The translations under genes were made by a program, and so were the position numbers. 64,000 nucleotides of DNA from a candidate division CSSED10-310 bacterium (GTDB taxonomy: Bacteria; CSSED10-310), in the NCBI GenBank assembly GCA_016931515.1, contig JAFGEQ010000002.1:104175-168174 (forward strand). Reading direction: 5' to 3'. Below are positions 586 to 60,299 of the stretch, piece after piece. The notes under the pieces were generated by a model. The model worked only from the letters and a program-made list of their open reading frames with translations, made no database searches and was not told the DNA's origin. The first letter of the stretch is position 1. The number at the start of each line of letters is the position of its first letter.

Positions 586-1710
586 CTATTCAGAGAAACT
601 CCAGATCCAGATATCCGGAGTGGTCAGAATCTGCTGGTAATCCAGGCTGGTAATCGCGGCAACAAACATCACATTATCTACCGAACCGGCGCCGGACGGC
701 CATGTAAACTCCGGCAAGATCGATACGACCGTGTCTCCCTGTGCGAATGTTCTGAGTTCCGAATCGATCGTTGTCTGCCAGGTTGGGTAAAACCATGTAC
801 CTCCTGCCATAAGTAACACGGTCATGAACCTTGATTCTATTTCAGTTTGATTCGAGTTACCGACCAAAGCGTTTACGAGAAAAGGTTGGCCCGGTGTAAA
901 GTGATGAGAAGGCATCCAGAGCAGCAGGGACAAGCCGGTGCCCGGCTGCTGAGTCGGGCAGGAAGTGCACGTCGGTGCAGGAGTATATGTTGGTAAGGGT
1001 GTTGCCGAAGGTGGTGGTGTAAAGGTCGGCAGCGGGGAATATGTGGGATAGGGTGTTGATGTTGGAAATGGTGTATACGTCGGAGGTGGTGTATAGGTCG
1101 GAAGAGTGCCCGTTGACGTCGCTGTTGGAGTTGGATCGGTTGTGTTGACCAGAAGTCTTAGAATCCAATCACCTGTAAGGCCGAAAAACTCTGAATATCT
1201 CCAACCGAAATTTATGTCGAACAGTGTATTGACATGCTGGGTGATAAATCCATCGTCATCCGAAAAGAATGAAGGGGGAGGATCCTGGAGAAACTCGAGT
1301 CCGACCCTGACAGATCCGGATAAAATGGGATCAAGCCCCAATCCTGTCATATCGATTTCGTTTATCGCTCCTGCAGTCAGCAAAACGGTGAAAGGCGTCG
1401 CGAGTTCTTCACCTGGAGATTCCCCTCCGCTATCCTCCCAGATATGACACAAAAACTGAGAGGAAGTAGTTCCGCCCATGGTTCCGTCTCCAACCAGGAC
1501 TCTGACAGCCATTACATCGAATGGATATTCAGTCGTTGAGACAGAAAATGTCGATGCCATGATTTCTCCGGTTACAAATCCGGCTTGGTAATTAGCTGCA
1601 TCCTCAGGCTGCCATGCATCATTCGCTAATTCTTGAATAGCTGCCTGAATTCCAGCGGGACATGTCACCAACATCGTTACAATCAGCCATGATAATAGTC
1701 TGCGGCTCAA
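586..1710 (-). CDS. Secreted protein: beta-rich N-terminal domain, Pro/Thr hexapeptide-repeat linker, conserved WFYP/FxWP C-terminal domain
   Basis: Signal-peptide-like N-terminus, GGAG RBS before the TTG start, xPT[YF]TP repeats. The C-terminal domain is homologous to those of 20920..22173 and 59034..60299. Confidence 0.75.
   Translation of the reverse strand: MSRRLLSWLIVTMLVTCPAGIQAAIQELANDAWQPEDAANYQAGFVTGEIMASTFSVSTTEYPFDVMAVRVLVGDGTMGGTTSSQFLCHIWEDSGGESPGEELATPFTVLLTAGAINEIDMTGLGLDPILSGSVRVGLEFLQDPPPSFFSDDDGFITQHVNTLFDINFGWRYSEFFGLTGDWILRLLVNTTDPTPTATSTGTLPTYTPPPTYTPFPTSTPYPTYSPLPTFTPPPSATPLPTYTPAPTCTSCPTQQPGTGLSLLLWMPSHHFTPGQPFLVNALVGNSNQTEIESRFMTVLLMAGGTWFYPTWQTTIDSELRTFAQGDTVVSILPEFTWPSGAGSVDNVMFVAAITSLDYQQILTTPDIWIWSFSE
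950..1140 (-). repeat. Coding tandem hexapeptide repeat (xPT[YFS]TP) linker
   Basis: LPTYTPPPTYTPFPTSTPYPTYSPLPTFTPPPSATPLPTYTPAPT in the translation. Confidence 0.85.
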
Positions 1711-1800
1711 GGACGTGATCTCCTTCCAAGTCGGGATTCGAATCCTGATATCTGTTTATCAGATTCGGATACATGCCGCAATTTTGCTTCCTGTCGACGG

Positions 1801-3498
1801 TTAACGTCTGCGAACCAGGTAGGGACCGGCAATCAGAGCATCGAGATGACTGGCTTCGAACGCTTTCAGCGCATCACCCGGTGTCATGACAATGGGTTCT
1901 TCGTGCATATTGAAACTGGTGTTGACGAGCGTCGGAATGCCCGTGAGCCGGTGATAAGCCTCCAAAATAGCGTAGTATTCCGGATTATCCTGACTTCGAA
2001 TTACCTGGGGTCTCGCAGTGCCATCCACGTGAACGACGGCAGGTGCTTCCTGTTTCATCGATTCGGAACATCGGAACGTGATAGTCATAAACCGGGCTGT
2101 TCGTTCAGCTCCGGAATACCCGAAGTAGCGGTCTTCCGCGAATGGAGCCAATGTAACGGGTGCGAATGGCATGAATTCCGTCCGTTTCAGTTGTTTATTG
2201 AGCCAATCATTTACGGAGGGATCACCGCAGTGATAAAGGATGGATCGATTCCCCAGCGCTCGGGGACCGAACTCCATTGGACCGTTGAAACGTGCGATAA
2301 CCTTTCCCTGCGCCAAGAGTTCCGCAGCGATCCGTGGCAAATCGGATGGAGTTTCATATGCATAACCGCACTGATCCAGTGTTAACCGGATTGTATCAGC
2401 CGGATAAGCGGTTCCAAAGTACATTGTGTCCGGTATGCTCAGATTTTGTTTTACCGGATACGATTCCAGGCATGCCCCCAGAGAAAGGCCGCAATCCGTC
2501 ATAGCCGGCATTACGAATGTATTTCGGAAACCCAATTCCTGAACGCGTCGATTGACCGACACGTTGGCGAACACGCCTCCCGCAAGACAGATATTATCAG
2601 ATTGAATGTCCCGGATATTATCCATGATTAACTGGATTACTTTTCGTTCCGTTAAAAACTGGATGGCAAAAGCGATAGTCTCACGTGCATACGAACCGAA
2701 TACCCTATTTCTGTCGTCCTGCAGCTTTTCGATTCCTGCCTGCTCGATAACCTGATAGGCCTCGGAGGAATCCAGAACGCCAATTCCGGAGGAACGCCAT
2801 GCTTTTTCAAGATATTCCTGTAAAGTATCAATGCAGGATTGATCATGCCGGCCATATGCAGCGAGACCTGTAATTTTTCCCGGGTGCCTGAGCGGATGAA
2901 AACCCAGCATGGCTGTCACCTTTTCGTAGTCACGACCGACCGTTACGTCATTATGAAAATAGCTTTTGACTTGCTTGATACCCGTCGTCCGGTCAGCCCG
3001 ATAAAAACAACATGAGAATCCATCACCCTCGCCGTCCAGCGTCATGATCCAGCTTTGATCAAAACCGCTGTGATAGAATGCTCCGGCAGCATGTGCTCGA
3101 TGATGCTCAATGTTGATAACGGGCCACTCCGGATCAATTCCACCCGCTGACACCTGTGCTTCCAGCGCTCGCCCGGCGAATAGTTTTTTGCAGCCATTTC
3201 TGAGCCATATTCCAAAACGTGGAGCTGCTCTGCCATTGAGAAGGGATCCCACGAAAAAATGCAATTCGCGAATGATTTTGGATCTCATTTTCATTCTGGG
3301 TGTAGCCAGGCATGAAATATTTTCCCTGTAAAGTTTCAAGGCATATGCCAGGGATAAAGCTGGAAATCCGGCGAACATTTTCTGCCGGTTGAATCGTTCT
3401 TCACCGGCGGCAAACAGGACCTGACCGTTCCGATCCAGGACAGTCACATTGCAATCATGGCCGGTATGAATGCCCAGGATAAGATCCTTATCAGTCAT
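1801..3498 (-). CDS. Carbamoyltransferase, NodU/CmcH family
   Basis: ILGIHTGHD, EERFNRQK, EHHRAHAA, LDGEGD, LAGGVFANV, EFGPRALGNRSIL, FMPFAP, HVDGTARPQ and NTSFNMHEEP motifs. Start moved to the ATG at 3498, which gives an ATGA overlap with the upstream stop. Confidence 0.93.
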   Translation of the reverse strand: MTDKDLILGIHTGHDCNVTVLDRNGQVLFAAGEERFNRQKMFAGFPALSLAYALKLYRENISCLATPRMKMRSKIIRELHFFVGSLLNGRAAPRFGIWLRNGCKKLFAGRALEAQVSAGGIDPEWPVINIEHHRAHAAGAFYHSGFDQSWIMTLDGEGDGFSCCFYRADRTTGIKQVKSYFHNDVTVGRDYEKVTAMLGFHPLRHPGKITGLAAYGRHDQSCIDTLQEYLEKAWRSSGIGVLDSSEAYQVIEQAGIEKLQDDRNRVFGSYARETIAFAIQFLTERKVIQLIMDNIRDIQSDNICLAGGVFANVSVNRRVQELGFRNTFVMPAMTDCGLSLGACLESYPVKQNLSIPDTMYFGTAYPADTIRLTLDQCGYAYETPSDLPRIAAELLAQGKVIARFNGPMEFGPRALGNRSILYHCGDPSVNDWLNKQLKRTEFMPFAPVTLAPFAEDRYFGYSGAERTARFMTITFRCSESMKQEAPAVVHVDGTARPQVIRSQDNPEYYAILEAYHRLTGIPTLVNTSFNMHEEPIVMTPGDALKAFEASHLDALIAGPYLVRRR

Positions 3499-5197: not shown

Positions 5198-5340
5198 ACA
5201 CTATCCCCCGTTGCATATCCGGGTGCTCATGGTAATAACGCATCCTGATGCTGTCAACTCAAGAGCTGATCAAATTCCATCATTTAATGTACACCATGAC
5301 CAGGTTTGACAGGTTGGATGAGAATGGATAATCTCCCGGC

Positions 5341-11825: not shown

Positions 11826-11834
11826 ACAGGAGTT

Positions 11835-22173: not shown

Positions 22174-22273
22174 GGGACGGCCTTCCTGCGATTCGGTAGT
22201 ACTACCAGAAGTACGGGTCAAGGGATGCGCTGGAGAATACTATATCCGAAACGGCTGCCATGGTCCATACGCG

Positions 22274-41910: not shown

Positions 41911-44769
41911 TTACAGCGGATCCACGCAACTGGCAGTTCCAAGAGCCGTCATGAAGATCTGTTGTGCATCACCTGCGGTGACATCCAGATCCCCGTTGCA
42001 ATCAGCGGCACATTCTTCTTCTTCGGTTGGAGTGATCAATCCCAGGGCAATCTGGAATGCCATCTGTGCATCACCCGCCGTAATATCGCCACTCAGGTTG
42101 ACATCACCATTATTGATGCATTCTTCCGGTGTGGAAGTCGGTGGGGGTGTCGGAGTGAATGTCGGTCCGGGTGTCGGAGTCGCTTCTTCACAGGGACTTT
42201 CGAAAGACACCATGACATCGTCGATGTTCCATCCACAGTAGACAACCGAGGAATCGCTAGCACCCATGACCCACCTGATCTTGACATCCGATGAGCCGGC
42301 TGCCACTGCGGAGATATTGTATTCCGCGTAAGACCAGCTGCTGGGTTGCGAACTGGATCCGGTATGATCCCAAATTGTAGTCCATGTGGAGCCGCCGTTG
42401 GCGGATACTCGCACGGAGGCATGATCCCATGTAGCACTTTCTACACCCAGCCAGTAATAATAGCTCAAAATGACTTCCGATGCCTGACTGCAGTCGATGG
42501 ACTGAGTAGTACAGAATGTCTCGGGCATATTGTTGGTATAAGAGCCGTTCAGGTTGTAGCCAACGACGTTTGAGCCGGTATAGCCGCTGGACGGATCGCC
42601 CGAGTTTCCTGTCGGGACGCCCCATGCCCACTGGTTTTCATAAGTCCAGTTCGGATTGGTATCCATGTTTGCACTGAGATAAACAACCAATTCATAGGTT
42701 TGGGCACCATAATGAGCGCCGCCGTTGTTATCGAGTGCGATATTCCCGGCCTGGTCTTCAGCCAGGACATCGAAGTAGTAGAATGTGCACGGGTCGAGAT
42801 TGTCAATGGTCATGCTGTGGCTTGTTGTCAACGCCTCATCTCTGATCTCCTCAATTGGACCGGTGCTCCAGTAGTTGATGATCGATCGCGCCATTTCATT
42901 CGTCTGCCAACTGACCGTGAACGATGTCGAATCGATATGGGTGATGCTCACGCCGCTGATCGATGGCAATTGTCCGTCTACCGTTGCGTTAACGGTTGCA
43001 TCCAGGCTGGGATACCAGACACTGATGGTTGAACCGTCCGCAACCGATATGGCTCCATCACCATGTACCGGTGAGTTCGACGTAGTCAGAAATGTCCCTT
43101 CGAACTGGCCGGTGGAAACCTCGCTCAATGTCAGGTATTCCCATGACGGTTCAACTGAACTCTGAATCTGCACATCCACTGATCCCGATGCGGTTCTATC
43201 CCGAACAGTGATGATCATCGAATCATTCGGCTGATACATTGCTTTATCCAGATAGACTCCGGCAAGTGCAGTGTAACAGGCATACGCATCGATCAGACCC
43301 CATCCCCAGACATGATTTGGAATCGTAGTTGCCGCATTGATACCCTGGCAGGTCTGGTTCCAGTACCCGGCACCGCCAGCTTGAGTATACGCGTTATCGA
43401 GAATGATCTGGCGGGTTGTATCGATATCACCGATCAAACTCGGGGCCGCCGACCAGAGTAATGCGACAACGGCGCAGGTGTGAGGTCCGGCCATTGAGGT
43501 ACCACCCCATCCACCTTCATAACCGCTACCGGGGACGCTTGAACGGACATCATAGCCGGGAGCCACGATTTCCGGTTTGATGAAGTTCGGAGCACCCGGA
43601 ATGCCACTGGCAGCCGGACCACGACTCGAACCCCAGTAAGTCCAGGACTCACTGACGATCCGGTTCTGAACATCGCTGGCGCCAGTGGTCAACACTTCTG
43701 GATAATCGCCAGGGGAGCGCAATGATTCGCAATCATCACCCTCGTTGCCGGCGGAGAATTCCATGAACACACCCGCTGCCTGCAGGGCATTGAGATCCGG
43801 GGCATATTGATAATCGCCGCCGCCAATGGGCCAACCCCAGGAATTATTGACAACATCAGGCGCCATGGCCGGAACGCCCTGTGCAGGTGTTTCGCCATAC
43901 CGATAAGGAGCCAGAAACCACTCGAAACATTCATGGAATCCCGCATCATCTTCCAGCGGACCACAGGCAATCCATTTCGCTCCCGGAGCCCCGCCTACCT
44001 GATTGCCGGCACCGTCGTCGCCAACCATCGTTCCCATGGTGTGTGTGCCATGCTCATCAGTATCGCAGGGAACCGCGCCGCAGGAGGAACCGACATCATG
44101 CCAGTTATACGCATGATCTGCCGTAGTGCCGTTCCAGCCACGGTAGTGATTTTTCAAAGCCGGATGATCCCAGTCAACACCTGTGTCAAGGTTCGCCACA
44201 ACGATTCCTTCTCCTGTCACACCTTCAGCCCACACATCCGTTATACCGATATGCGACAGGTTCCATTCCGGAGCGTTAGGCGGTGTATTTGCATCGTATG
44301 CCATCGGTTGATCGTTTTTGAATTCAAATGGATTATTCGCCCGTATCTTGGCTACATTGACATTATTGACCGCACTCAACAGCATATCCGGAGTTGCTTC
44401 ACGGACCAGAATCATATTCTGGATATAGTACTGCTGGATGCCCGGGAGAGACAGATTCAGTTCGCTGATCACCTGGGGTTGAGTTCTCTCGGCAACTTCT
44501 TTCAGCTGGTGATAAACATACTGCCCCTTATCCTTTTTGTTTCGGATACCTTTGGCACCCGACAGATCAGCCTGTTCGGACAATACTATGAACAGGCTGG
44601 ATGTTCCTTTCGACTGCATCTCCTGCAGAATCGAATCCGGAACTTTCTTAAGTGACTGGACCGCTACTTCACCACCCCAGAATTCGGGATCGGCAACAGC
44701 ACCGGCCGGCGGTACCACCGATGCCATTATTAATATCAGAAGAGAAAGTTTGAATATTTTTGTGATCAT
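41911..44769 (-). CDS. Secreted S8 subtilase (bacillopeptidase F-like) with FN3, jelly-roll and C-terminal dockerin-like domains
   Basis: Catalytic NLDTGV, HGTHTMG and GTSMAGP motifs; VVNNSWG; AAGGAGG RBS; duplicated D[VC]NxxxD[IV]TAGDAQ loops at the C-terminus. Confidence 0.92.
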   Translation of the reverse strand: MITKIFKLSLLILIMASVVPPAGAVADPEFWGGEVAVQSLKKVPDSILQEMQSKGTSSLFIVLSEQADLSGAKGIRNKKDKGQYVYHQLKEVAERTQPQVISELNLSLPGIQQYYIQNMILVREATPDMLLSAVNNVNVAKIRANNPFEFKNDQPMAYDANTPPNAPEWNLSHIGITDVWAEGVTGEGIVVANLDTGVDWDHPALKNHYRGWNGTTADHAYNWHDVGSSCGAVPCDTDEHGTHTMGTMVGDDGAGNQVGGAPGAKWIACGPLEDDAGFHECFEWFLAPYRYGETPAQGVPAMAPDVVNNSWGWPIGGGDYQYAPDLNALQAAGVFMEFSAGNEGDDCESLRSPGDYPEVLTTGASDVQNRIVSESWTYWGSSRGPAASGIPGAPNFIKPEIVAPGYDVRSSVPGSGYEGGWGGTSMAGPHTCAVVALLWSAAPSLIGDIDTTRQIILDNAYTQAGGAGYWNQTCQGINAATTIPNHVWGWGLIDAYACYTALAGVYLDKAMYQPNDSMIITVRDRTASGSVDVQIQSSVEPSWEYLTLSEVSTGQFEGTFLTTSNSPVHGDGAISVADGSTISVWYPSLDATVNATVDGQLPSISGVSITHIDSTSFTVSWQTNEMARSIINYWSTGPIEEIRDEALTTSHSMTIDNLDPCTFYYFDVLAEDQAGNIALDNNGGAHYGAQTYELVVYLSANMDTNPNWTYENQWAWGVPTGNSGDPSSGYTGSNVVGYNLNGSYTNNMPETFCTTQSIDCSQASEVILSYYYWLGVESATWDHASVRVSANGGSTWTTIWDHTGSSSQPSSWSYAEYNISAVAAGSSDVKIRWVMGASDSSVVYCGWNIDDVMVSFESPCEEATPTPGPTFTPTPPPTSTPEECINNGDVNLSGDITAGDAQMAFQIALGLITPTEEEECAADCNGDLDVTAGDAQQIFMTALGTASCVDPL

Positions 44770-44927: not shown

Positions 44928-47900
44928 TCAGGGTTTGATATCATCAGCCACCCTCAAAATCCTGACCGGAACGAGTTGGTCACGGATGGCAGTCTCTACC
45001 GGGCCCGTGATGACCAATGTCGCCAGTGTACCGCCGACACCCTCCGGAATCACGGGGTCATAAGTGCCGTCATTGTAAGCTCCGATACGAATCCTGTCCG
45101 GAGCAGGATCATTGCAGCCGAACTGCACCCATTGAGGATTGAGATCCCCTGTGAAGCATTCGACCAGTGTGAATCGGGAATCCAGAGATAACTCGATCCA
45201 GAAAGCATCAATCTCTCTGTGATCGGTATCAAGTGTAATGGCGATTTCGATCGTGTTCTGATCAGCCTCCACATAATCAAGGGAGACAGGAATCTCGTGG
45301 TTCACAATCGGCAAGTGACTCAATCGAGGCGGGGCGTCTTTCACGCGATCCATTGGATCAGCGCAGGATGTCATACCAAGAGCTGTCATGAATATCTGCT
45401 GCGCGTCGCCTGCCGTTATTTCCCCGTTGGCATTGCAGTCCGCAGCACAGGCTTCCTCTTCGGTCGGAGTAATGACACCGAGTGCGCACATAAATGCCAT
45501 CTGGGCATCGCCGGCTGTAATTTCGCCATCGAAGTTGCAATCACCGTGATGTACGCACGGATTGCCGAAGCTGTCGGCCCAGACTTCCACGTCATCGACA
45601 TTCCATCCACAATAGACGACAGACGAATCCGTCGTTCCCATGACCCATCTCAGGTATACGGTCGGCTGATTGTCGGCCACTGCGGAAATATCATAGACCA
45701 TCGTCTGCCAGCTGGTATCGGTAAAAGAACTTCCCGAATGATCCCAGATCGTCGTCCAACTCGTTCCGTTATTGGAGACGCGGAATGAAGCGTGATCCCA
45801 CGTGCTGGATTCGACACCGAGCCATCGCATAAACCGGACTTCAACATTCTCAAGGCTGGAGCAATCGATCGCAGTCGTCGTCAGATTGGTTTCCGGCATG
45901 CTGTTCGTATAGGATCCGGACAGGTTGTACCCATAGACACTCGTACCGGTATATCCGCTTGACGGGTCACCTGACGCACCCTGCGGAACACCCCAGGCCC
46001 ACTGGCTTTCTGTCGTCCAGCCGGGATTGGTGTCCATGTTCCAATAATACCTCTGGATGAAATTCGAACCGGTGATCTCGATCTCGAACGTCAATTCCGC
46101 TTCCGCTTCGTTGGATTGAATATCCAGCGTTACTGTCACGACCGTTGGATCGGGAGTAAATCCCGCCGCCTGAATCGAGAAGTGAGGTGTGATGGATCCT
46201 CCGCTGCCACCGCCGACAATGTCGTTGAAATCCGCTTCATCATCATTGATGAACAGGTATGCGGGTGAATCGCTGTTAATCGTTCCGGTCACACCGGTGA
46301 TCCCCATTGATCCGCCGTTCAGCAGTTCGATAGCCAGTGTCGCCGTTTCGCCGGGATCCAGGATTCCGTCGTGATCGCCCCCATCCGTTATCGTGATTGT
46401 GCCAATCGACAAGTCCGGACCTGCTACCGTCTCGGTGAACGTGAATGAACCGTTGCCTGCGCTGCTGAAGTAGGTCACGGTAAATGAAATCGTCTCGCCA
46501 TTGGTTGCGGCAGCGGAGACATCGAATGCGAACGGCGTCAGGGTCTGGCCTTGACCGCCGGCGGGAATATCCGGGAACAATGCGCTGTCCTGGGTGACTG
46601 TGACATGCGGATTCGTCGTTGACAGATACCCGGTGATGCCGGTTCCGGCGATTCCCACATTCTCCACCGTCACATCTAGAAGAATGGTCTCCATTGGATT
46701 GATCATTCCGTCATTGTTTCCGGCGCTGTCGTCAATCGCGTGATCGGCATGCGTCAACACAACCTGTGGATTGTCGGACGACGCCCAAAGTTCGATATCA
46801 TCAAGATTCCAGCCGCAGTAAACAACCGAACCGTCGGTTGTTCCCATCACCCATCGCAGGTATACCGCTGCCTGCCCATCGGCGATGCCCGAGATATCAT
46901 AGCTCATCGCCTGCCAGCTCGGATCTGTGAAACTGCTGCCGGTGTGGTCCCAGATGGTGGTCCATGTCGACCCATTATTGGACACCCGGAAGGACGCGTG
47001 ATCATAACTGCTGGATTCAACACCCAGCCAGCGCATAAAACGGACTTCCACATCGGATAAATTAGCACAATTGATCGGTGTGGATGTCAGACTTGTTTCC
47101 GACATGTCGTTGGCATAGGCACCCGCTAGATTATAACCATAGACATTGGCGCCGGAAAAACCACTCGACGGATCGCCGCCGGCTCCCTGCGGGATTCCCC
47201 AAGCCCACTGACCTTCCGTAGTCCAACCCGGGTTGTCGTCCATATCCCACAACTGACGCCTTACAAAAGTCGATGTTGTGATTTCAACATCAAACGGCAG
47301 GATTTTATGATGTGCATACGCCTCGATTTCCAGATAGAACGTGACAATCATGTGATCCGGAGTGCTCTGCAGGGATGAAACCGTGAAGTGCGGATCAATG
47401 CTCGATACCGTCTGACCCGGATTCATATCCGGAAATCCCGCCCACCCTTGGTCGATGGTAATATATTCCGGATGGTTGCAGGTCAGAGTTCCAGTTATAT
47501 CCTGAGCCGCCAGGCGACCCTGATTAATCAGGGACACAGTCATTTGAACGGTCTCACCCGGATCGAAAATGCCGTCACCATCGCCACGCGTGTTCCAGTC
47601 GATGATACCGCAGGAGTCGAAACAGGCATTTGCTGCAACGATTTCCTCCATGAACATCGTCTGCGCCGTGGTTCCGCCGGCGGTCCATTCCACAACAAAC
47701 GGAACAGTATCACCATCGATGGCAGTGTCGTTCACAGAGAATTGATAGTCGGTCAGACTCGTTCCATTGCCTCCCTGAAGAATGTTTGGAAAATTCGCCG
47801 AAGGAACCGTCACAGTGACGCCGGTATAATCTGTTGAAAGAACGGCGCTGACACCCATCGCATCCAGTCCGACATTGCGTAGCGTCACCAGCATCGCGAT

Positions 47901-50900
47901 AGTCTCCAGCGGATTGATCATGCCGTCACCGTTGCCGGCACTGTCATCGATCTCGTGCGAGTGATGAAGCAGGATCGGAACGTTGCACGGCGCTGCGTAA
48001 GATATTTCCACATTGTCGATATTCCAGCCTCCCACCGAACCGGTGCTGGCAGGACCCATCGTCCAACGGATATAGACGGCCGGCTGGCCGTCGGCATATT
48101 CAGAAATATCGTATTCATAGCGGGTCCAAGCGTAATCGTAAAGATTGGAATTGGGGTTCGTGTAGATCGTATGCCAGGTGTTGCCGTCGTTGGATACGAG
48201 AATATAGGCTTCATCGTAGCCGTGTTCATCCACATCCAGCCACTGGTAAAAGCTGAATCGCACACCGAACGCGGCGGAGCAATCCAGGGCCGGTGTTGTC
48301 AGGTGGTAGGGCGTTGAACCGCCGGCGTAAGCGCCGTTGAGGTTCGTGCCGTAGACGTTCGGGCCGTCAAAACCGGAGGTCGGATCGGCTCCCGGGCCGG
48401 ACGGCTGCCCCGTCGGCTGCCCGAACTGCCAGTCTCCCCCGCTGATCGTCCAGTTGGGGTTCGTGTCCATGTTTTCCTGGAGCACATAGATGCGCACCAT
48501 TGTTGTAAACGCGTAGTTCAAGCCGCCGTTGTCATCCTCGGTCGTATTGCCGGCGCCATCGGCGGAGCGGACAAAAAGCACGTAATCCATGCACTGCTGG
48601 AGTCCGGTGATTGTCACCGAATGAGACGTCCGCAATCCCTCGACGGACGTTTCGGTATCCGGAGTCGACAAACCGTAGATAACGGTGCCCGTGCAGGGCT
48701 CGTCGGTCGTCCAGGTAATAGTCGCCGATGTATCATCGTGGAACGCGATGGTGACATTACTGATAACCGGGTATGTATCGTCCACAACCGCCGTATCGGT
48801 AACCGGGATGTTGACTCCGCCGAAACCTGTCGAAGCATCGATATAGGTTCCAGTGATCACATCATCCGGTGAAGCGTCTATATAGCCGTTTCCGGGAGCC
48901 GCCGCGCTGTCCCGGATATCGATCGATTCCTGGAAAACACCGGTATTCGGACCGGTTTCCGTCAGCAGGAGTGTTTCGGAATCACCGTTGTCGACGGTCA
49001 ATACGATGGAAATTGAATCCGCCGTATACGGATCGATGTTCAGATCAACATCCTGGACCGTGCAGACCACGGTGCCGTCCGAAGCATACGCAGGCTGATC
49101 GAAATTGAACTGCCCGCGGGTCGTAACCCGTCCAAACAGTGGGGTTTGCGGGCATCCCAACAGATTGACCTCATAGCATGTCCAGCGGTTGGCTTTGTAG
49201 TTCATGCACCAGATATTATCTTCCTTCGAATCGGCATTCATGCGTCCCAATTCCCGGATATCCTCCGTGAAAAAGGCATCGTGGAACTGGCGATGGAAGT
49301 ATTGACCCGGGCCGTCGGTGCAGCCTATTTCGCCCCAACCATAGCGACCATTCATGAAAACTGCGAACGCGCCGCCTGCATTCCAGGAGAAGTTTTCGGC
49401 GATGCAGTCAGTGGTATCGAAAGCTCCGGCGTAACAACCCTGGGAGTAAACCAGGAATGGCCGGCTGTTGGTAAGGCTTTGAACATTCGAGATACTGAGC
49501 AGCATGACCGTTGTTTCATTGGCATGACCGAGGTGATTGATCCAGTGGACATTATTGGAGTTCATTTTGGGTACCAGCTGGCTGCTGCTCCAGGATGTTT
49601 CCCGTTCATAGAGGTGATCGATGGCCCAACCGGAGGGATAACCCGGGGTGCTGTATCCCCAAAGATCCGATCCGTACCAGAGTTCATCCATATAGTCTCC
49701 ACCATAAGTCTGAGGCCACAGATATTCACCCAGCAGCAATGCATTGTCCGCCCAGTCGGCCTGATAATCATCCGTTTCGTAAGCAATTATTTTGGCAACG
49801 AAATTCCGGAGCTGCGTCGCCGAATCCACTGAGCCTCGCCCGATGAACAATTCCGCGAGGACATCGGGTTCCGTACCGCCGGGGCCGTCGTCAACTTCTC
49901 CGTAACGACTGTTGCCGTTGCTGTTCCAGTTGCCATCCAGGCATCCGAAATACATATCGGTTGGAACGGTATTGTCTTCATGACCCTCAGCAGTCGCGTA
50001 GCAGCCACGGGTCGGCACGATCGCCTGATCACCCCCGAGCAGGATGTATTCGGTATTCCAGTTTTCATATGCATCCATGCAGAAATTGCGGATTTTATCC
50101 TGGTTGTCGACACCGGTGTATTCTGCATAGATATCCTCGATCGGTTTAATGGTTCCACTGATACCACGGGTTGACTTGAAGGCAAGCAGATCCTGGAAAT
50201 TATTCGGTCCCGGGGTGTTGATCAGGGTGTTGTTTGAAATGATGACATATTGATAGACATCGCGACTCAGAAGTGATTGAGTCTGCACCGGTTCGGCCTT
50301 ATAGCACGAAGCTAATTCCGGATTCTCGACTTTTCCTGTGATCCAGTCCAAATCCGATACAAGACCCCGGCATCGGACCCGGTCGGAACGTGTGTCGGCG
50401 ACAGCGGTGTCTATGATGATATGAGCATTCCGGGCAGCCCGGAGAGTGCCTTGTGAAGGCACATAGCGAACCGGAAACACATTGAAGGTAACCAGCTGGT
50501 AACCTTTACTCCAGAAAATCCGGGGTTCCGAACAATCAACAGAAGGAAATGGAGAATCACTCCGGTAGATAACCGGATCGGGAGCCGTTATCTGCAGCGC
50601 CTGCGGCTCGCTCAACGGATAGCAATGTTGCCCTGGAGCCAATGTAACGGTACCTGGTAGATCGTACCAACCGTCAAAGATGACGGCAACATTCTGAAGA
50701 ATCTCATTTTGAGGAAGCAGGAGTGTAACCGGTCGGAACGGAACCTGTGGTTCTCCGGGATTCGCCATCAGTGGAGAATCAGGCATATTAATTTTTGTGT
50801 AAGTGACCGGGGGAGAATTCCCCTGTTGCCCGATATGCCATTCCGTCAGTGTGGGAGTGTTAAAGCTGACAGAATGTTCGATACGGGCTGCACCAAGAGG

Positions 50901-50948
50901 TGAACAGACCACAATCGGAATGATCATGAAGAATAACCAGCGATTCAT
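44928..50948 (-). CDS. Large secreted C25 (gingipain-like) cysteine protease with propeptide, FN3, three jelly-roll repeats, dockerin-like and C-terminal cohesin-like domains
   Basis: GGAGG RBS before the ATG at 50948; propeptide (NPGEPQVP); YILLGGD..VP, TDMYF, FIGR, NHLGHA (His) and YSQGCYAG (Cys); DGxINPxETI-type Ig domains; dockerin at 45351-45557. Confidence 0.9.
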   Translation of the reverse strand: MNRWLFFMIIPIVVCSPLGAARIEHSVSFNTPTLTEWHIGQQGNSPPVTYTKINMPDSPLMANPGEPQVPFRPVTLLLPQNEILQNVAVIFDGWYDLPGTVTLAPGQHCYPLSEPQALQITAPDPVIYRSDSPFPSVDCSEPRIFWSKGYQLVTFNVFPVRYVPSQGTLRAARNAHIIIDTAVADTRSDRVRCRGLVSDLDWITGKVENPELASCYKAEPVQTQSLLSRDVYQYVIISNNTLINTPGPNNFQDLLAFKSTRGISGTIKPIEDIYAEYTGVDNQDKIRNFCMDAYENWNTEYILLGGDQAIVPTRGCYATAEGHEDNTVPTDMYFGCLDGNWNSNGNSRYGEVDDGPGGTEPDVLAELFIGRGSVDSATQLRNFVAKIIAYETDDYQADWADNALLLGEYLWPQTYGGDYMDELWYGSDLWGYSTPGYPSGWAIDHLYERETSWSSSQLVPKMNSNNVHWINHLGHANETTVMLLSISNVQSLTNSRPFLVYSQGCYAGAFDTTDCIAENFSWNAGGAFAVFMNGRYGWGEIGCTDGPGQYFHRQFHDAFFTEDIRELGRMNADSKEDNIWCMNYKANRWTCYEVNLLGCPQTPLFGRVTTRGQFNFDQPAYASDGTVVCTVQDVDLNIDPYTADSISIVLTVDNGDSETLLLTETGPNTGVFQESIDIRDSAAAPGNGYIDASPDDVITGTYIDASTGFGGVNIPVTDTAVVDDTYPVISNVTIAFHDDTSATITWTTDEPCTGTVIYGLSTPDTETSVEGLRTSHSVTITGLQQCMDYVLFVRSADGAGNTTEDDNGGLNYAFTTMVRIYVLQENMDTNPNWTISGGDWQFGQPTGQPSGPGADPTSGFDGPNVYGTNLNGAYAGGSTPYHLTTPALDCSAAFGVRFSFYQWLDVDEHGYDEAYILVSNDGNTWHTIYTNPNSNLYDYAWTRYEYDISEYADGQPAVYIRWTMGPASTGSVGGWNIDNVEISYAAPCNVPILLHHSHEIDDSAGNGDGMINPLETIAMLVTLRNVGLDAMGVSAVLSTDYTGVTVTVPSANFPNILQGGNGTSLTDYQFSVNDTAIDGDTVPFVVEWTAGGTTAQTMFMEEIVAANACFDSCGIIDWNTRGDGDGIFDPGETVQMTVSLINQGRLAAQDITGTLTCNHPEYITIDQGWAGFPDMNPGQTVSSIDPHFTVSSLQSTPDHMIVTFYLEIEAYAHHKILPFDVEITTSTFVRRQLWDMDDNPGWTTEGQWAWGIPQGAGGDPSSGFSGANVYGYNLAGAYANDMSETSLTSTPINCANLSDVEVRFMRWLGVESSSYDHASFRVSNNGSTWTTIWDHTGSSFTDPSWQAMSYDISGIADGQAAVYLRWVMGTTDGSVVYCGWNLDDIELWASSDNPQVVLTHADHAIDDSAGNNDGMINPMETILLDVTVENVGIAGTGITGYLSTTNPHVTVTQDSALFPDIPAGGQGQTLTPFAFDVSAAATNGETISFTVTYFSSAGNGSFTFTETVAGPDLSIGTITITDGGDHDGILDPGETATLAIELLNGGSMGITGVTGTINSDSPAYLFINDDEADFNDIVGGGSGGSITPHFSIQAAGFTPDPTVVTVTLDIQSNEAEAELTFEIEITGSNFIQRYYWNMDTNPGWTTESQWAWGVPQGASGDPSSGYTGTSVYGYNLSGSYTNSMPETNLTTTAIDCSSLENVEVRFMRWLGVESSTWDHASFRVSNNGTSWTTIWDHSGSSFTDTSWQTMVYDISAVADNQPTVYLRWVMGTTDSSVVYCGWNVDDVEVWADSFGNPCVHHGDCNFDGEITAGDAQMAFMCALGVITPTEEEACAADCNANGEITAGDAQQIFMTALGMTSCADPMDRVKDAPPRLSHLPIVNHEIPVSLDYVEADQNTIEIAITLDTDHREIDAFWIELSLDSRFTLVECFTGDLNPQWVQFGCNDPAPDRIRIGAYNDGTYDPVIPEGVGGTLATLVITGPVETAIRDQLVPVRILRVADDIKP
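45575..48480 (-). repeat. Three intragenic copies of a ~160-aa jelly-roll domain (MD[TD]NPxWT...GDPSSG...GWNxD); a fourth copy lies in the S8 gene at about 42200-42670
   Basis: Near-identical peptide blocks such as RWLGVESS.[WY]DHASFRVSNNG..WTTIWDH.GSSFTD in copies 2 and 3. Confidence 0.85.
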
Positions 50949-51027
50949 TATATTACCTCCTCCGAGAAAAGATTGAGCGGCATTTAGGCATACCACTCCC
51001 TGAAACAATACCAGCATTCGCCATTGA

Positions 51028-51043
51028 AGCAAGGACTGTACCC
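51028..51043 (-). promoter_or_regulatory. Possible sigma-54 promoter of the large C25 gene
   Basis: Minus strand GGGTAC-AGTCC-TTGCT with correct spacing and a non-consensus first base. Confidence 0.4.
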
Positions 51044-52310: not shown

Positions 52311-52598
52311 TCAGCAATTCCATTACTGCGTTTTAAGTGACTGAAGCGGACAATTGATCCGCTAACCACGTATGATGCCGGGCTTAACTGTCCAATGCAA
52401 GCCCTTATTCCACCGTCAAGCGCTAGATAAAGCACTGTTGATTTTTCTCTCACCTTGACTCAGGTCTATAACAAGCAGTCTTCTGATCATCATTTTTCCA
52501 GATGTTGAATCCATCACGCGTACCCTTGCCGCATACGGAATATCCTGCAATAATTATCCACAGCTGAACTCAGTGTCTAATTCGGGAGTCTCCGGCAG

Positions 52599-53591: not shown

Positions 53592-53644
53592 CAGGGTTGC
53601 CGAACCAGATCAATTGAAATTTCCCGCCTCTTTCAGGGTGACGA

Positions 53645-54730: not shown

Positions 54731-54824
54731 CACCGTCGTTGCATTCGATTTATAAACAGCGTGGCATTCAGGCTAATCTATCGCAATACATTCAAAATTC
54801 TACCGAGAACATCAATGATTGCTT

Positions 54825-55547: not shown

Positions 55548-55639
55548 CCTTCCCGGGTTTACACATAACTCGTTGATACGAACACTATTTATTCCACCAT
55601 GAGTCATGCGAAAAAATCAAATGTTTCAGCTTTATCTGG

Positions 55640-55677
55640 AAAAAAAGAGAACGTCCAGGCAATCAACCCGGACGTTC
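55640..55677 (-). terminator. Rho-independent terminator of the second C25 gene
   Basis: GAACGTCC...GGACGTTC hairpin followed by a T-tract on the minus strand. Confidence 0.65.
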
Positions 55678-55701
55678 GATACATCTCAATAATCAGTCTG
55701 T

Positions 55702-58700
55702 CTATAAAGGATCAGCGCATGATCCCAATCCCAGCGCTGCCAGGAATATGCTTTGCGCATCACCGGCAGTCACATCCTCATCCGCGTTGCAGTCCGCCGC
55801 ACACCATTCCGGATCCGATGGAACATACGTCCCCAGCGCAATCTGAAATGCCATCTGAGCATCTCCTGCCGTGATCTCGCCATTCAAGTTAACATCGCCG
55901 CTGTTAATGCATGGATCCGGTGTCGCAGTCGGTTCGGAACATGGAGCGGAGGAGAAAATTACCACATCATCGATATATGAACCCCGATAGTCATTGATCA
56001 TGCCGTCGACAGAATTGAAATTGAATTTAAGATAAATGTTGTGCCCGACATAATCATTCATATCCAGAACATATTCCTGCCAGCCGCCTGAATTCCCTTC
56101 AACCGTCAGCAGATTGATCACGGACTGCCCCTGAACCTGGATCTGGATGGTCAGAATATCGTAACCGCCATATTCTTCACCTTCATGCCAATACCAGACG
56201 TGATATTCCGCATCGGTGATCGCTGTCAGATCAATAAGTTCCGATGTCAGTGTACCCTCGGTCGTCCCCACATCGTAATTGCATTGCGGTTCCTGGCCGT
56301 AATACCAGCTGCTCACTCCGGAATGATTCTCAGGGCAGCTCCCCGATGCATTCGTGTGATGCCACAAACCGCTGTGCGTCCAGGCTCCCGGTCCCGACTC
56401 CATATCATCGCTGAAATACACAACCTGTTCCCAGGTGACAAAGGAATAATTATCGCCGCCGTTGTCCTCGATGGTCGTATTCCCGGCGATATCCGTCGAC
56501 TGCACGTAGAACACATATTCCGTGCAATCCAGCAATCCCGTCAATGAAATGACATGATCTGTTGTCTTTACACTGGACGACACTTCCTCGGTCGGAAAAT
56601 CTGTCCCGTAGAATACAACGCTGTCGGATTCCTCATCCGTCACCCAGTGGATAACGGCCTGGCTATAGCTGACTCCGGTCACTTCCACATTGTTTATCTG
56701 AGGAGGTACGCCATCGATAACCGCGGTGGCAGTGACTTCGATGTTGACGCCGCCATGCCCGTCATCTTCATCGATGTACACCGCCTGGATCTGGTTCCCG
56801 TGCTGGACTTCCAGAATACCATTGCCAACGACGGCAGATCCCTCCGAAATCGTTACCGTATCCTGGAAAACAAACGTGGAATTCCCGGTTTCCGTTAAAA
56901 CGAATGTTTCCGTATCGCCGTTATCGGAACTGAGAGTCACCGGAACGGTGTCCGGTCCTCCCGGATTCTCATCCAGATCGAGATCCCGCACTGTGACGAC
57001 CGCAAACGAATCCGGCTGATATTGCGCCATATCAAACATGATGGTTCCATCGCTGGACAACGCAAAGTCCATTCCAAGATCCGGGTTCCCATACAGCGTC
57101 CATTCACACATTTCCAGCTCCGTATAGTCCCATCCGTTCATCTGGTATACCTGGGTCAACCCATTCTGCATCGATTCACCCTGCGTCATACCGCCGGACA
57201 TGACCCCGCTGGAGAAAAAATAATCCAGCGACTGGCTGGAACCGTCGGACGGTCCGCTCCACCCCGGACACCCATATGCCACCCTCGTGGATCCTACAAA
57301 CCCGACCGCGCCCTGCTCGATCATGCGCGCGCCGATGCTGATTTCCGACGTTTCGCTGTTGCTGCATGCATCCGCAAAAATTATCGCAGGATAATTGTCG
57401 TCGAGTAACGGACAGATCGATGTGTCGACAAACGGCTGTGACGGATACAGCTCATAACATGCCGTTGCTGATCCGTGGCCGGCCCAGTTCACAAACGCAA
57501 AGGTATTGCTTGTCCAGACACTCTGCACGTTTGAATAACTGGCGTTGTAATCGCAGGAATAGCTGCTCTGCGGAACCTCATACATCCGCGTCATGGTCCA
57601 GTCTTCCATTCCGGGCTGATCCACCTTCGCTTCCATGAGTACCGCGTTGTCCGTATCATCCCAGAAGAATGTCCCGATCAGCAGGACATTTTTCTTGAAC
57701 GACGGGTCATCCGTCATTTCATACGCAATCGTTTTTTCCACGACATGCTGCACCGTCGATGGTGTACTCCATGGAATCCGGCCCACGTTTACCTCGGAAT
57801 AAAAATCGCACGAATCGCCGGAACCCAGATACACCTGGTTGCTGTTGGCGTCCCAGGACTGGTTGTCCGGCAGTGACAGCTCGGCAAAATAGAAATCCGT
57901 ATCCGGATCATCGGAAATATGACGCATGGGAACATTGGCCATAGCACCCACAAGGCATACATCCTCAATACCCCATTCCGCGGATGGATATTTTTCTCTC
58001 AGGAAATTACGCATCTTCTGGGCCAGGTCAACACCCGGGTAGGTCGAATTGATCCATTCCGTTGTCACCGAAGTGGCTGTCCGGCCCTTGATGATTTCCC
58101 AATCAACAAGGTCTGCTGCAACCGTCTGCAGGGCGCTTGTTGTGATCAACACGTATTCGTAAAGACCCCTGCTTCCGGGATTCGACGGATACCAGGCCTG
58201 AGCCTGATCATAGTTCAGTATCAGCGACTGGGCTCTCTGCTCCATTCTCGGCTGATTATCGATCATCGCCGGCTGGCTGCTCACGGGCATCCGGTAATGG
58301 ACGTCAAGCGTGATATCGGGATAATAGACCAATGTCCCGGAAACAGGCCGGTATTGATACGGGCTGACCCTGATGTCCACAATATTGTATTTCCGGAAAC
58401 CGCCGGACCGGACATATTCGGCTATCGCAGCCGGATAAAGATCATCGGAACCATATACCGCTCTCTGATTGTCCTCAAAAAGACGGGACTCCTTCGAATC
58501 AGACCGTACATCGCCTGTTTCGATCGTCCGCGGTGCAGGTGCAGGCGGAATGTCGATACCGTCCAGTTCCTGCGGTGTTCCGGTACGGACACTCAGTGAC
58601 TCGTAAACCGCTCCGGGAGGTATCGCGACGGCGTAAATCCGCGCCGGCAGTCGCGGGCATCCGGGCTCCCTTAAATACCCATATCCTGAGATCGAAACCT

Positions 58701-58845
58701 CATCGCCTCCGTCCTGCTCCAGCATATTGTCCATCAAGACAGGTACGGTAACCGATATCCTGCCCGATTCTCCCCGAACCGTTCCGGGAATAAGACCAAG
58801 CATGAATATAAAACCTAACAATCCTATCGCGATTTTATGTCTCAT
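55702..58845 (-). CDS. Secreted C25 (gingipain-like) cysteine protease with FN3, jelly-roll and C-terminal dockerin-like domains
   Basis: GGAGG RBS before the ATG at 58845; propeptide (EPGCPRLP); TDFYF, VNVGRIP, NWAGHGS (His), FADACSN (Cys) and LYGNP motifs; duplicated TAGDAQ loops. Confidence 0.9.
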   Translation of the reverse strand: MRHKIAIGLLGFIFMLGLIPGTVRGESGRISVTVPVLMDNMLEQDGGDEVSISGYGYLREPGCPRLPARIYAVAIPPGAVYESLSVRTGTPQELDGIDIPPAPAPRTIETGDVRSDSKESRLFEDNQRAVYGSDDLYPAAIAEYVRSGGFRKYNIVDIRVSPYQYRPVSGTLVYYPDITLDVHYRMPVSSQPAMIDNQPRMEQRAQSLILNYDQAQAWYPSNPGSRGLYEYVLITTSALQTVAADLVDWEIIKGRTATSVTTEWINSTYPGVDLAQKMRNFLREKYPSAEWGIEDVCLVGAMANVPMRHISDDPDTDFYFAELSLPDNQSWDANSNQVYLGSGDSCDFYSEVNVGRIPWSTPSTVQHVVEKTIAYEMTDDPSFKKNVLLIGTFFWDDTDNAVLMEAKVDQPGMEDWTMTRMYEVPQSSYSCDYNASYSNVQSVWTSNTFAFVNWAGHGSATACYELYPSQPFVDTSICPLLDDNYPAIIFADACSNSETSEISIGARMIEQGAVGFVGSTRVAYGCPGWSGPSDGSSQSLDYFFSSGVMSGGMTQGESMQNGLTQVYQMNGWDYTELEMCEWTLYGNPDLGMDFALSSDGTIMFDMAQYQPDSFAVVTVRDLDLDENPGGPDTVPVTLSSDNGDTETFVLTETGNSTFVFQDTVTISEGSAVVGNGILEVQHGNQIQAVYIDEDDGHGGVNIEVTATAVIDGVPPQINNVEVTGVSYSQAVIHWVTDEESDSVVFYGTDFPTEEVSSSVKTTDHVISLTGLLDCTEYVFYVQSTDIAGNTTIEDNGGDNYSFVTWEQVVYFSDDMESGPGAWTHSGLWHHTNASGSCPENHSGVSSWYYGQEPQCNYDVGTTEGTLTSELIDLTAITDAEYHVWYWHEGEEYGGYDILTIQIQVQGQSVINLLTVEGNSGGWQEYVLDMNDYVGHNIYLKFNFNSVDGMINDYRGSYIDDVVIFSSAPCSEPTATPDPCINSGDVNLNGEITAGDAQMAFQIALGTYVPSDPEWCAADCNADEDVTAGDAQSIFLAALGLGSCADPL

Positions 58846-58877
58846 AAGATACCTCCATTTCCAATAATAAACGAGAA

Positions 58878-58894
58878 GGCAAATATGTTGCCAA
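58878..58894 (-). promoter_or_regulatory. Sigma-54 -24/-12 promoter
   Basis: Minus strand T-TGGCAA-CATAT-TTGCC, about 33 bp upstream of the ATG at 58845. It is also palindromic (GGCAA-N5-TTGCC). Confidence 0.6.
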
Positions 58895-59033
58895 ATACTC
58901 ATTATTGAGATTTTTATCTGGTTTAATCTGTGGATCGCGGCGAGGGAAAGCACTTTGTGCAGATTATATTTTATCACTTAACAACCGCACACAATTTTTA
59001 AGGAGGAGGTGGAGTATCTGTCAAGTCTTTCAG

Positions 59034-60299
59034 TTAAAGAGCGCTGAAAGATCCCCATTCAGTCACGTTCCAGGCCAGGAGATCAAACGATTCGGCATCG
59101 AAACAGGCTCCCCAGAACCGCAATCCGCCGGTTAAAGTGACACCGGCTGGCCATTGAAACGCCAGCAGGACTTCCGACCGGTACTGACCGCGTTGAATCG
59201 TCCCGGTGACCCAGTCCACATTCGGGGTGAAATCGGGATAAAACCAGAAGCCGCCGCAAGCATCCAGAATGATGACTTCGATGACATCGAGCGCTTCAGT
59301 GCCCGGATTGCCTGTCCTCCGTTCAAGAACGAACCAGTCGTCTGCGCCCGTTGCCATAGACGGGATATAAAGGCTGTAATGGAGCCCGTCCGGCACCGGC
59401 AAATCGGAATACTCAAACCATTGCGCATCACGCCCTATATTGCATGTGCCGTATTTCATGTAAGCGACTCCTTCATCACCCCAGCCGGTTCCCCACGAGT
59501 TCTTGACGAACCAGGCACCGGTGCCGCCGCACATCGCATCATCCCATCCGACGATGATAACACCGTGGTTGATCGGTTGAGTGGCTGCATTTTCATAGCA
59601 TCCGGCAGTATAGAACATGAAATTGTTGTAGACCGTCATGCTGCAGGACAGGGCACCGTGGTAAAGCAAGGCATATTTCAGGGAGTTGATGCTGTACGGA
59701 ACCGGGTAAGCTCCGGCGATCCAGCCGACCGGCGAACAGTCGTTTTGCAGGCAATCGCCATCCTCATCGATATAGGGATAACAGGATTCCTCCACCAGGC
59801 CATAGTCCCGCAATGCCGTCCATCCGTTGATGAAACCGCCATCGCAGCCGTAACCGTTGGCATTGCAGTCGAGCAGCTGCTGTTCAGAGAGGTCCATCTC
59901 TATACCGGTTGCGAGCAGGGCTGCCGATTCGGCTCCACCGATCAGGGAAAACGCCCAGCAGGGGAAACAATCACCCATCCCCTGCTGACGGGCGGGGGTA
60001 TATCCGCCGTTTTCGCGCCAATCAAACCGGGTTGGGAAAGTCATGGATTCGACCAGTGGATTGGGTGTCGGCCAAGCCGCAGGCGCAGCGGTTGTGGAGC
60101 CGTAATGCGACATGAGCAACCCGGGATCGCGAATAAAACAGGTGGACACACCGGTCTGACCTGCGATCCAATCCTGCCGGTTGGCGTCAATATCCTGATT
60201 GATCCGGTATAACATGTCATTTTCGTCATCGGAAATTGCCATGACCGGTAGGCTGATAATGAGCAGCAGCGCAAAAATGAGTAAAAAACAATTTTTCAT
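59034..60299 (-). CDS. Secreted papain-family (C1A) cysteine protease with the conserved WFYP/FxWP C-terminal domain
   Basis: FDWRE, QQGMGDCFPCWAF, LSEQQLLDC, GCDGG, NHGVIIVGW and KNSWG..WG motifs. Confidence 0.92.
   Translation of the reverse strand: MKNCFLLIFALLLIISLPVMAISDDENDMLYRINQDIDANRQDWIAGQTGVSTCFIRDPGLLMSHYGSTTAAPAAWPTPNPLVESMTFPTRFDWRENGGYTPARQQGMGDCFPCWAFSLIGGAESAALLATGIEMDLSEQQLLDCNANGYGCDGGFINGWTALRDYGLVEESCYPYIDEDGDCLQNDCSPVGWIAGAYPVPYSINSLKYALLYHGALSCSMTVYNNFMFYTAGCYENAATQPINHGVIIVGWDDAMCGGTGAWFVKNSWGTGWGDEGVAYMKYGTCNIGRDAQWFEYSDLPVPDGLHYSLYIPSMATGADDWFVLERRTGNPGTEALDVIEVIILDACGGFWFYPDFTPNVDWVTGTIQRGQYRSEVLLAFQWPAGVTLTGGLRFWGACFDAESFDLLAWNVTEWGSFSAL

Follow-up and report, generated by a model that had tools for sequence, protein, structure and literature searches.

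The 64,000-nucleotide stretch of DNA analysed here, called the window below, covers positions 104,175 to 168,174 of contig JAFGEQ010000002.1 (assembly GCA_016931515.1), from the genome of a candidate division CSSED10-310 bacterium that we refer to as G000 (2.57 Mb, 24 contigs, 90% complete). Three genes of the window encode apparently exported proteins that end in a common domain of about 110 residues, labelled here the C-terminal domain (CTD), and a fourth gene of this kind begins near the end of the window. These genes and their domain copies are as follows.

586-1710 (-): gene for an exported 374-aa protein with a signal peptide, an unassigned beta-rich domain, a long Pro/Thr/Tyr linker and the CTD (L058)
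586-945 (-): CTD copy 1, the last ~118 residues plus stop of open reading frame (ORF) 586-1710 (alignment; hidden Markov model (HMM) E 4e-30)
20920-22221 (-): gene for an exported 433-aa protein with an unassigned cargo part, a short Pro/Thr linker and the CTD (L048)
20920-21264 (-): CTD copy 2, the end of ORF 20920-22221 (alignment; HMM E 2e-33)
59034-60299 (-): gene for a papain-family (Peptidase_C1) protease of 421 aa with a signal peptide and the CTD (L074)
59034-59393 (-): CTD copy 3, the end of ORF 59034-60299 (alignment; HMM E 1.5e-26)
63410-64000 (+): start of a fourth CTD-protein gene, encoding a 1212-aa protein of PMP-repeat/beta-helix type (L047)

The last of these genes extends past the end of the window, so its CTD lies outside, at C9:170884-171210. 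Alignment of the last ~115 residues of the other three ORFs, with 26% identity to the first sequence, reproduced the pattern of a shared terminal domain described in an earlier note on this DNA, and contained 16 invariant columns (L, S, F, N, L, G, WF, P, G, F, WP, F, A, W). The HMM match stops 3 residues short of the stop codon in copy 1 (C9_-_72140_73306) and 2 residues short in copy 2. The N-terminal parts are unrelated, as had been claimed: ORF 586-1710 matched no Pfam family, the cargo part of ORF 20920-22221 gave a noise hit only and no family, and ORF 59034-60299 contains Peptidase_C1 (PF00112, E 4.4e-44, residues 89-291). Inspection of the ORF sequences likewise bore out the signal-peptide-like starts reported for all three genes and the Pro/Thr linkers reported ahead of the CTD in two, the papain protein being without one. 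The true start of ORF 20920-22221 is probably a Met 16 codons in, directly before the hydrophobic segment.

A profile built from the three window copies alone recovered 57 matches in G000, 54 of them new, at E values from 6e-27 to 3e-6, which places the similarity of the three copies far beyond chance. Iteration of the HMM on the six-frame ORFs of G000 converged at 57 CTDs in 56 ORFs. A single copy is present in 55 of the 56 carrier genes, which make up about 2.8% of the 2,008 crudely called genes of this genome. The many paralogues, terminal and on exported proteins, that the earlier note had expected are thus present. The domain closes the protein in 51/57 copies, which stop 0-7 residues ahead of the stop codon and have Glu or Asp as the final residue in 20 cases; three more are followed by 13-17 residues, and one is truncated where its contig stops. 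A hydrophobic, signal-peptide-like start was called in 52 of the 56 carriers, compared with 684 of the 1,952 other genes, by a crude heuristic and not a trained predictor, with the first start codon taken as the gene start. Of the four carriers lacking a call, one is truncated by a contig end and two look signal-peptide-like by eye. Linkers with at least 50% Pro, Thr and Ser precede 26 of the 57 copies. Many such linkers close with Cys-x(2-3)-Gly-[Val/Cys]-Thr just ahead of the CTD, and a subgroup of copies has a conserved Cys in the second strand as well.

The cargo is diverse. Searches of the 56 full proteins against Pfam (E ≤ 0.001) assigned a family to 34 and none to 22, and in no protein does a Pfam family span the CTD. 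Proteases account for 11 of the 34 (Peptidase_C1 three times, S8 four times, C25, astacin, M6 and Trypsin_2). Other carriers are repeat and propeller proteins (Beta_helix five times, PQQ and FG-GAP), further enzymes (FGE-sulfatase, PLDc_2, amidohydrolase, GSDH, DJ-1/PfpI and a transglutaminase core), two haem-binding Temptin_C proteins and a Cohesin scaffold.

An operon at G000:C12:232087-237180 (L036, L164, L165 and L032) resembles a porin-cytochrome conduit: between genes for two small, CTD-ended Temptin_C proteins, which contain one CxxCH motif apiece, it encodes a multihaem cytochrome of 590 aa (Cytochrome_C7, MtrC/MtrF-like) and an outer-membrane-like protein of 438 aa that matched no Pfam family. 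Genes for two TPR-fused GT-C/PMT-like membrane glycosyltransferases (TMEM260-like, PMT_2) adjoin CTD genes at C20:110807-113263 (L117) and C3:181510-183540 (L118); that the Pro/Thr-rich linkers nearby are targets of O-glycosylation is speculation.

No characterised domain matched the CTD in sequence searches of Pfam, NCBIfam and the PDB, in line with the earlier description of an unnamed domain. Among 56 CTD copies, no Pfam family was matched by more than one copy at E ≤ 1, the sole Ig-type match being to MG4 in 1/56 (E 0.003), and NCBIfam returned four one-off noise hits only. A profile search of PDB sequences gave nothing below E 0.57, and the ESM Atlas gave unnamed clusters only (best score 0.91). 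AlphaFold2, run on the 56-row alignment with copy 3 as the modelled sequence, predicted an eight-strand immunoglobulin-like (Ig-like) beta-sandwich (predicted local distance difference test (pLDDT) 92.4, predicted template modelling score (pTM) 0.83). Foldseek (best E 7.5e-4) returned many Ig-like and E-set domains, and VIA-align gave Z scores of 8.1-10.1 over 89-108 aligned residues, with root-mean-square deviations of 2.2-4.0 Å. The neighbours include the transglutaminase beta-barrel 4kty (Z 10.1), dextranase and GH2 Ig-like domains, RbmA 4be5, CsgC 2y2y, macroglobulin domains, CARDB 3idu (Z 8.1 to the CTD model) and a porphyran-binding carbohydrate-binding module (CBM), 8wae; no family stands clear of the many unrelated rows. 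The predicted eight-strand sandwich of the CTD resembles these Ig-like and E-set domains, but identity to them is 4-16%, and no Pfam model of those families matches it beyond the single MG4 hit. Such domains are usually internal spacers, not terminal tags.

The nearly invariant residues of the CTD (N26, P50, F76 and W78-P79) lie at or beside strand ends, and its last strand is the conserved aromatic tail, with an FGW-like motif. Judged from the strand order, the invariant residues and both termini would come together at one pole of the sandwich, which would make a plausible binding site there.

The distribution of the CTD was examined in the 14 species genomes of the phylum present in the collection searched (G000 to G013), whose relatives are named "candidate division CSSED10-310" in the sources. 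A profile search (E ≤ 1e-5) found the domain in 11/14 genomes, in numbers ranging from 59 to more than 150: 59 matches in G000, 67 in G004, 70 in G008, 81 in G007, 83 in G005, 89 in G006, 92 in G009 and 107 in G010, and at least 150 each in G001, G002 and G003, where there are 271-298 candidates. The CTD is numerous in four families of the phylum. G011, G012 and G013 (87-96% complete), which belong to three other families, had no match at this threshold. A search of 1.84 billion public representatives gave 2,693 clusters (50% identity) with a match at E ≤ 1e-3, of which 2,279 also passed E ≤ 1e-10. For the best 150 of the 2,693 clusters, the table shows the match reaching to about 10 residues or fewer from the C-terminus in about 143; two exceptions among the public matches are a record of CTD fragments (P0001) and an apparently fused gene call (P0022). 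The public relatives are named "hypothetical protein" or after their cargo, and are assigned to "candidate division CSSED10-310". A Brevundimonas record with a 27% match to a single CTD protein was rejected as spurious, its genome being without a profile match; the same single-protein scan otherwise gave only a G002 contig. As far as searched, the CTD appears confined to one phylum.

CSSED10-310 has been described as a rare phylum and the sister group of Acidobacteriota, predicted to be Gram-negative, with flagella and type IV pili (PMC8248873). The CTD is not mentioned in that work, and the literature on C-terminal sorting yielded no account of such a domain in a search that lay outside subscription journals and supplements. 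Homologues of CTD cargo in the CTD-free genomes have other endings. A beta-helix homologue in G012 has a different, unassigned C-terminal region, a weak one in G011 (E 1e-6) ends in a Pro/Thr linker, a hydrophobic helix and a basic tail, and papain homologues in G012 have a poly-Pro linker followed by what by eye resembles an Fn3-type domain. Such examples hint at alternative endings, but are too few and too distant to count.

A second terminal module, the dockerin, is present in the same genome, and three dockerin-bearing genes lie in the window itself.

41911-44769 (-): dockerin-ended 952-aa protein, its body partly paralogous to the CTD proteins L065 and L042
44928-51032 (-): 2034-aa protein with a dockerin 155 residues before its end, its body paralogous to the CTD protein L065
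55702-58977 (-): gingipain-like protease (C25-type, weak match) of 1091 aa, dockerin-ended (dockerin at C9:159927-160073), neighbour of the papain gene

G000 has 21 dockerin (PF00404) matches, of which 17 lie no more than 23 residues from the protein end. None of the 21 dockerin genes carries a CTD, and the Pfam scan of the 56 CTD proteins found no dockerin, which substantiates the earlier claim that the two are distinct tags. The same cargo families in G000 have either a CTD or a dockerin, never both. Pairs of dockerin-ended and CTD-ended paralogues were found for the C25-like protease at 55702-58977 of the window and L065 (40% identity over 959 aa), an astacin and L037 (67% over 264 aa), an FGE-sulfatase and L031 (51%), a beta-helix protein and L035 (30% over 455 aa), and an S8 protease and L042 (31% over 467 aa). 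Dockerins are numerous only in the family of the window's genome (21-55 per genome), and their counts do not track those of the CTD. Cohesins and the CTD also meet in single chains: L049 has two cohesins and a CTD at its end, and cohesin-region matches together with a CTD were found in single ORFs of G005, G007 and G008.

The CTD thus resembles the dockerin/cohesin system in being a C-terminal module that is swappable on the same cargo bodies, and its position in the cohesin protein L049 is that of the cell-wall anchor in anchoring scaffoldins. In cellulosomal anchoring scaffoldins this anchor is an SLH module or a sortase signal. It differs from the dockerin in having no PF00404 match and in being numerous in four families, whereas dockerins are numerous in one, and from SLH and sortase anchors in containing neither signal; sortase is absent from 11/11 CTD-bearing genomes.

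Large gingipain-like (Peptidase_C25-type) proteases with dockerins are encoded at 55702-58977 and 44928-51032 (-) of the window and at G000:C4:306-4100. The protein of the C4 locus combines C25, dockerin and cohesin in one chain, an arrangement like that of an adaptor scaffoldin, and its gene lies directly upstream of three CTD genes. A further cohesin occurs in a 790-aa fusion of TPR, secretin (PF00263, E 2e-39) and C-terminal cohesin (PF00963, E 6e-9), encoded at G000:C16:59544-61913 (L134:4545-6914, (-)) downstream of genes for an extracytoplasmic function (ECF) sigma factor, a zf-HC2 anti-sigma factor and a TPR protein. A secretin with a dockerin receptor is unusual, and dockerin enzymes may dock at the pore.

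The closest likeness in use is to the type A CTD of the type IX secretion system (T9SS; Por_Secre_tail, TIGR04183/PF18962), whose hosts are Bacteroidota and other phyla of the Fibrobacterota-Chlorobiota-Bacteroidota (FCB) group. This domain is also a small beta-sandwich at the extreme C-terminus of proteins with signal peptides, which number from dozens to hundreds in a genome, and in both cases there is one copy per protein and the cargo is diverse and rich in proteases, including gingipain-like C25. A terminal sandwich on varied signal-peptide cargo is a likeness in use and not evidence of membership. The type A model has 72 positions, compared with the ~110 residues of the CTD, and none of the 56 copies matched TIGR04183 or PF18962 in NCBIfam and Pfam at E ≤ 1, nor did any of the 56 full proteins in Pfam at E ≤ 0.001. 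Comparison by hhalign with 11 type A CTDs from bins of the phylum gave a probability of 0.23%. Scans of the copies and the proteins with the whole Pfam and NCBIfam libraries also gave no match to TIGR04131/PF13585 CHU_C, the type B CTD of the T9SS.

Components of the T9SS were sought as well. PorV (PF19572) was not found in G000 at its 90% completeness, the Bacteroides thetaiotaomicron control being positive, and the best PorU (NF033707) score was 49.9 bits against a cut-off of 420, the hits being ordinary C25 peptidase regions. SprA (TIGR04189, PF14349) had no match in 14/14 genomes, yet the control genomes were equally silent. Type A CTDs occur in 2/14 bins of the phylum (G009 and G006; L151-L161), all on contigs of 2.7-6.4 kb. 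Because only two bins are concerned, both fragmented, and the contigs are very short, these copies are probably mis-binned and derive from other organisms.

PEP-CTERM, GlyGly-CTERM and MYXO-CTERM tags, which are read by exosortase, rhombosortase or myxosortase, and the NCBIfam "choice-of-anchor" families are also lineage-restricted, high in copy number and found on signal-peptide proteins, and passengers of the PEP-CTERM-type tags and the "choice-of-anchor" families occur with alternative endings, as CTD cargo does. PEP-CTERM-type tags consist of a short motif, a transmembrane helix and a basic tail, whereas the CTD is a folded domain of 110 residues lacking a hydrophobic helix. The CTD proteins end 0-7 residues past the last beta-strand with no transmembrane helix, and a signal of the PEP-CTERM type was rejected on this ground. 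The view that the domain resembles neither the T9SS CTD nor the PEP-CTERM tags therefore stands: there is no profile match, and the CTD is a folded domain with no helix.

The CTD is linked by gene order to the type II secretion system (T2SS). The T2SS operon of G000 is complete (GspE, F, G, H, two more pseudopilins, K, an L-like protein, M and D). GspD is followed, with overlapping stop and start codons, by the gene for a lipoprotein with three Big_1 domains and an invariant lipobox Cys, and 3 bases past this gene lies L071, a typical CTD gene encoding a beta-helix, a Pro/Thr linker and the CTD. This locus was compared in nine CTD-bearing and two CTD-free genomes (all but G005, G009 and G013). 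A same-strand orthologue of L071 occupies the position in 5/9 of the CTD-bearing genomes examined (G000, G004, G007, G010 and G001), which represent three families of the phylum with GspD identity down to 50%. In G002, G003, G006 and G008 a convergent gene of M6 type, also CTD-bearing, comes next, and in the CTD-free G011 and G012 the GspD-lipoprotein pair is kept with no CTD gene.

The lipoprotein itself, of Big_1/invasin-type Ig architecture with a Pro/Thr-rich tail (G000:C24:20883-22013; L133:15884-17014, (+)), is translationally coupled to GspD in G000 and paired with it in 11/11 genomes examined, in a longer form in the two CTD-free ones. It may assist the secretin as a pilotin-like protein or as a partner at the surface. 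Complex prediction with lipoprotein residues 29-332 and the CTD scored 0.00 in two runs without controls, and is uninformative either way.

The earlier note had proposed that phylogenetic profiling might reveal a translocon or sortase-like gene with the distribution of the CTD; no such gene emerged among the families tested. Secretin and an exosortase-like short ORF were discarded as candidate readers because each is present in 14/14 genomes, CTD-bearing or not, sortase because it was found in two CTD-free genomes only, and dockerin as a partner because its numbers do not follow those of the CTD. The exosortase-like ORF (181-230 aa, one per genome; in G000 at C9:12232-12651 (-)) matches only the second half of PF09721 (positions ~100-252). 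A screen by terminal beta-signal yielded 21 predicted outer-membrane proteins, and the 14 of them scanned with Pfam were mostly TonB-type proteins, FadL and porins. A 380-aa outer-membrane-like protein encoded two genes downstream of a CTD gene (L163; G000:C12:212542-213681) has a TraF_2 match and a weak N-terminal match to PorV/PorQ (NF033709, 29.7 bits against a cut-off of 90). As a reader it was dismissed, since homologues exist in 13/14 genomes, two of them CTD-free.

From these sequence data we consider it somewhat probable, on balance, that the CTD is a lineage-specific C-terminal address or anchor module of exported proteins, probably secreted by the T2SS, which holds its cargo at the cell surface. 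The earlier note had proposed a lineage-specific tag for export or surface attachment, separate from the dockerin. Its lineage restriction (as far as searched), nearly always terminal position and distinctness from the dockerin are confirmed; the sorting or anchoring role is one that we still infer from architecture. Cargo would use an ordinary signal peptide at its N-terminus to cross the inner membrane by the Sec route (the peptides are seen, the route is presumed), fold in the periplasm, and pass the outer membrane most probably through the T2SS. The Ig-like sandwich, carried on a flexible and often Pro/Thr-rich linker, would then bind a component of the envelope, such as a surface glycan, lipopolysaccharide or a receptor protein. 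Within the family of the window's genome the CTD would in addition anchor cohesin scaffolds, at which dockerin-tagged enzymes could dock. Given a surface address and the anchoring of scaffolds, the CTD would be used like the T9SS CTD or the SLH module of scaffoldins, and be related to neither.

Several observations weigh against this surface-anchor reading. None of the families tested is present in the 11 CTD-bearing genomes and absent from the three others. The T2SS also occurs in genomes with no CTD, and the arrangement of a CTD gene behind its operon is a single evolutionary event among relatives. CTD genes in G000 are dispersed and mainly monocistronic, and clustering of the neighbours of the 56 CTD genes gave generic families only (ABC ATPases, TPR proteins, radical SAM proteins, kinases, response regulators and dockerin proteins). 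The export of the carriers is judged from the heuristic signal-peptide calls described above. Some copies are not terminal: L051 has a second Pro/Thr linker and a region of ~110 residues after its CTD, 157 residues in all beyond the copy, the double FGE-sulfatase protein L031 has one internal CTD in addition to its terminal one, and about 5% of public copies among the best 150 of the 2,693 clusters are internal or followed by domains, P0094, P0109 and P0137 being genuine internal copies with other domains after them. Finally, cohesin scaffolds require both export and anchoring, so CTD-ended scaffolds do not separate the two readings, anchoring and the secretion signal considered next.

It appears unlikely that the CTD is a true secretion signal, that is, a folded domain read in the periplasm by an outer-membrane translocon (the T2SS or another) and then cut or kept. 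The precedent is the T9SS CTD, which Sov/PorV recognise and PorU cleaves, with the cargo linked to anionic lipopolysaccharide. Such a signal would agree with the strictly terminal position in 51/57 G000 copies and ~143 of the best 150 public clusters, with the single copy on diverse cargo, with the conserved tail of 0-7 residues, often Glu/Asp-ended, past the last strand, with a flexible linker that could house a cleavage site, and with the co-transcription of a CTD gene and the T2SS operon in 5/9 genomes examined. However, the T2SS is found equally in the three CTD-free genomes of the phylum, no protease or sortase-like gene has the distribution of the CTD, internal copies with domains after them should not be tolerated if a free C-terminus were required, and dockerin-tagged paralogues must exit with no CTD. 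The exit of these paralogues and the existence of internal copies favour retention over a pure secretion signal, and the ~5% of internal copies in particular are easier to reconcile with a module for anchoring or binding than with a signal requiring a free C-terminus. We are more doubtful still that the CTD is, as its sequence and gene order might be read, a portable folded cargo tag for the T2SS, recognised or handed over by its sandwich and then retained on the surface.

A general CBM-like or adhesin-like module, which would stick enzymes to external particles, polymers or the biofilm matrix, seems to us about as doubtful as the T2SS tag. The fold is the generic Ig-like/E-set one seen in glycosidase domains, the porphyran-binding CBM 8wae, RbmA and CARDB, conserved aromatics (WF, W, F-x-WP and FGW) are typical of glycan-binding faces, and internal positions are tolerated in ~5% of proteins. 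Yet 0/34 Pfam-assigned cargoes are glycoside hydrolases or polysaccharide lyases, most being proteases and assorted non-carbohydrate enzymes, and this absence of glycosidase cargo weakens the case for such a module. Substrate binders are commonly repeated, N-terminal or internal, whereas the CTD is single and is terminal in ~90-95% of proteins; it also occurs on proteins that lack a polymer substrate, namely cohesin scaffolds and haem proteins, and the searches made place it in one phylum only. We regard as very improbable a role as a folding aid, stabiliser or pro-domain with no addressing function, comparable to the PPC and P-domains of secreted proteases. C-terminal beta-sandwich extensions are common on such proteases, and 11/34 Pfam-assigned carriers are proteases, but the majority of carriers are not, a dockerin can take its place on the same cargo bodies, long flexible linkers part the CTD from its cargo, and a family-specific pro-domain would not be expected in 2-5% of all genes.

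In an uncultured phylum the CTD is attached to a large part of the exported proteins, 57 to more than 150 genes per genome, yet databases leave the domain unannotated. With a model of it, the surface and secreted proteins of these sediment bacteria could be labelled together, among them many proteases, haem proteins and cohesin scaffolds. It adds a further case of one terminal tag on many cargoes, beside T9SS domains, dockerins and short tags, in a lineage showing no T9SS. The alternation of dockerin and CTD on the same cargo, the CTD-ended cohesin proteins and the T2SS operon link are new leads, the last of which bears on how folded proteins are selected for, or retained after, type II secretion. 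To our knowledge, the substrate signal of the T2SS has never been defined in any bacterium; if the CTD did prove to be a tag for this system, its carriers would form the first sequence-recognisable T2SS secretome, amounting to 2-5% of all genes.

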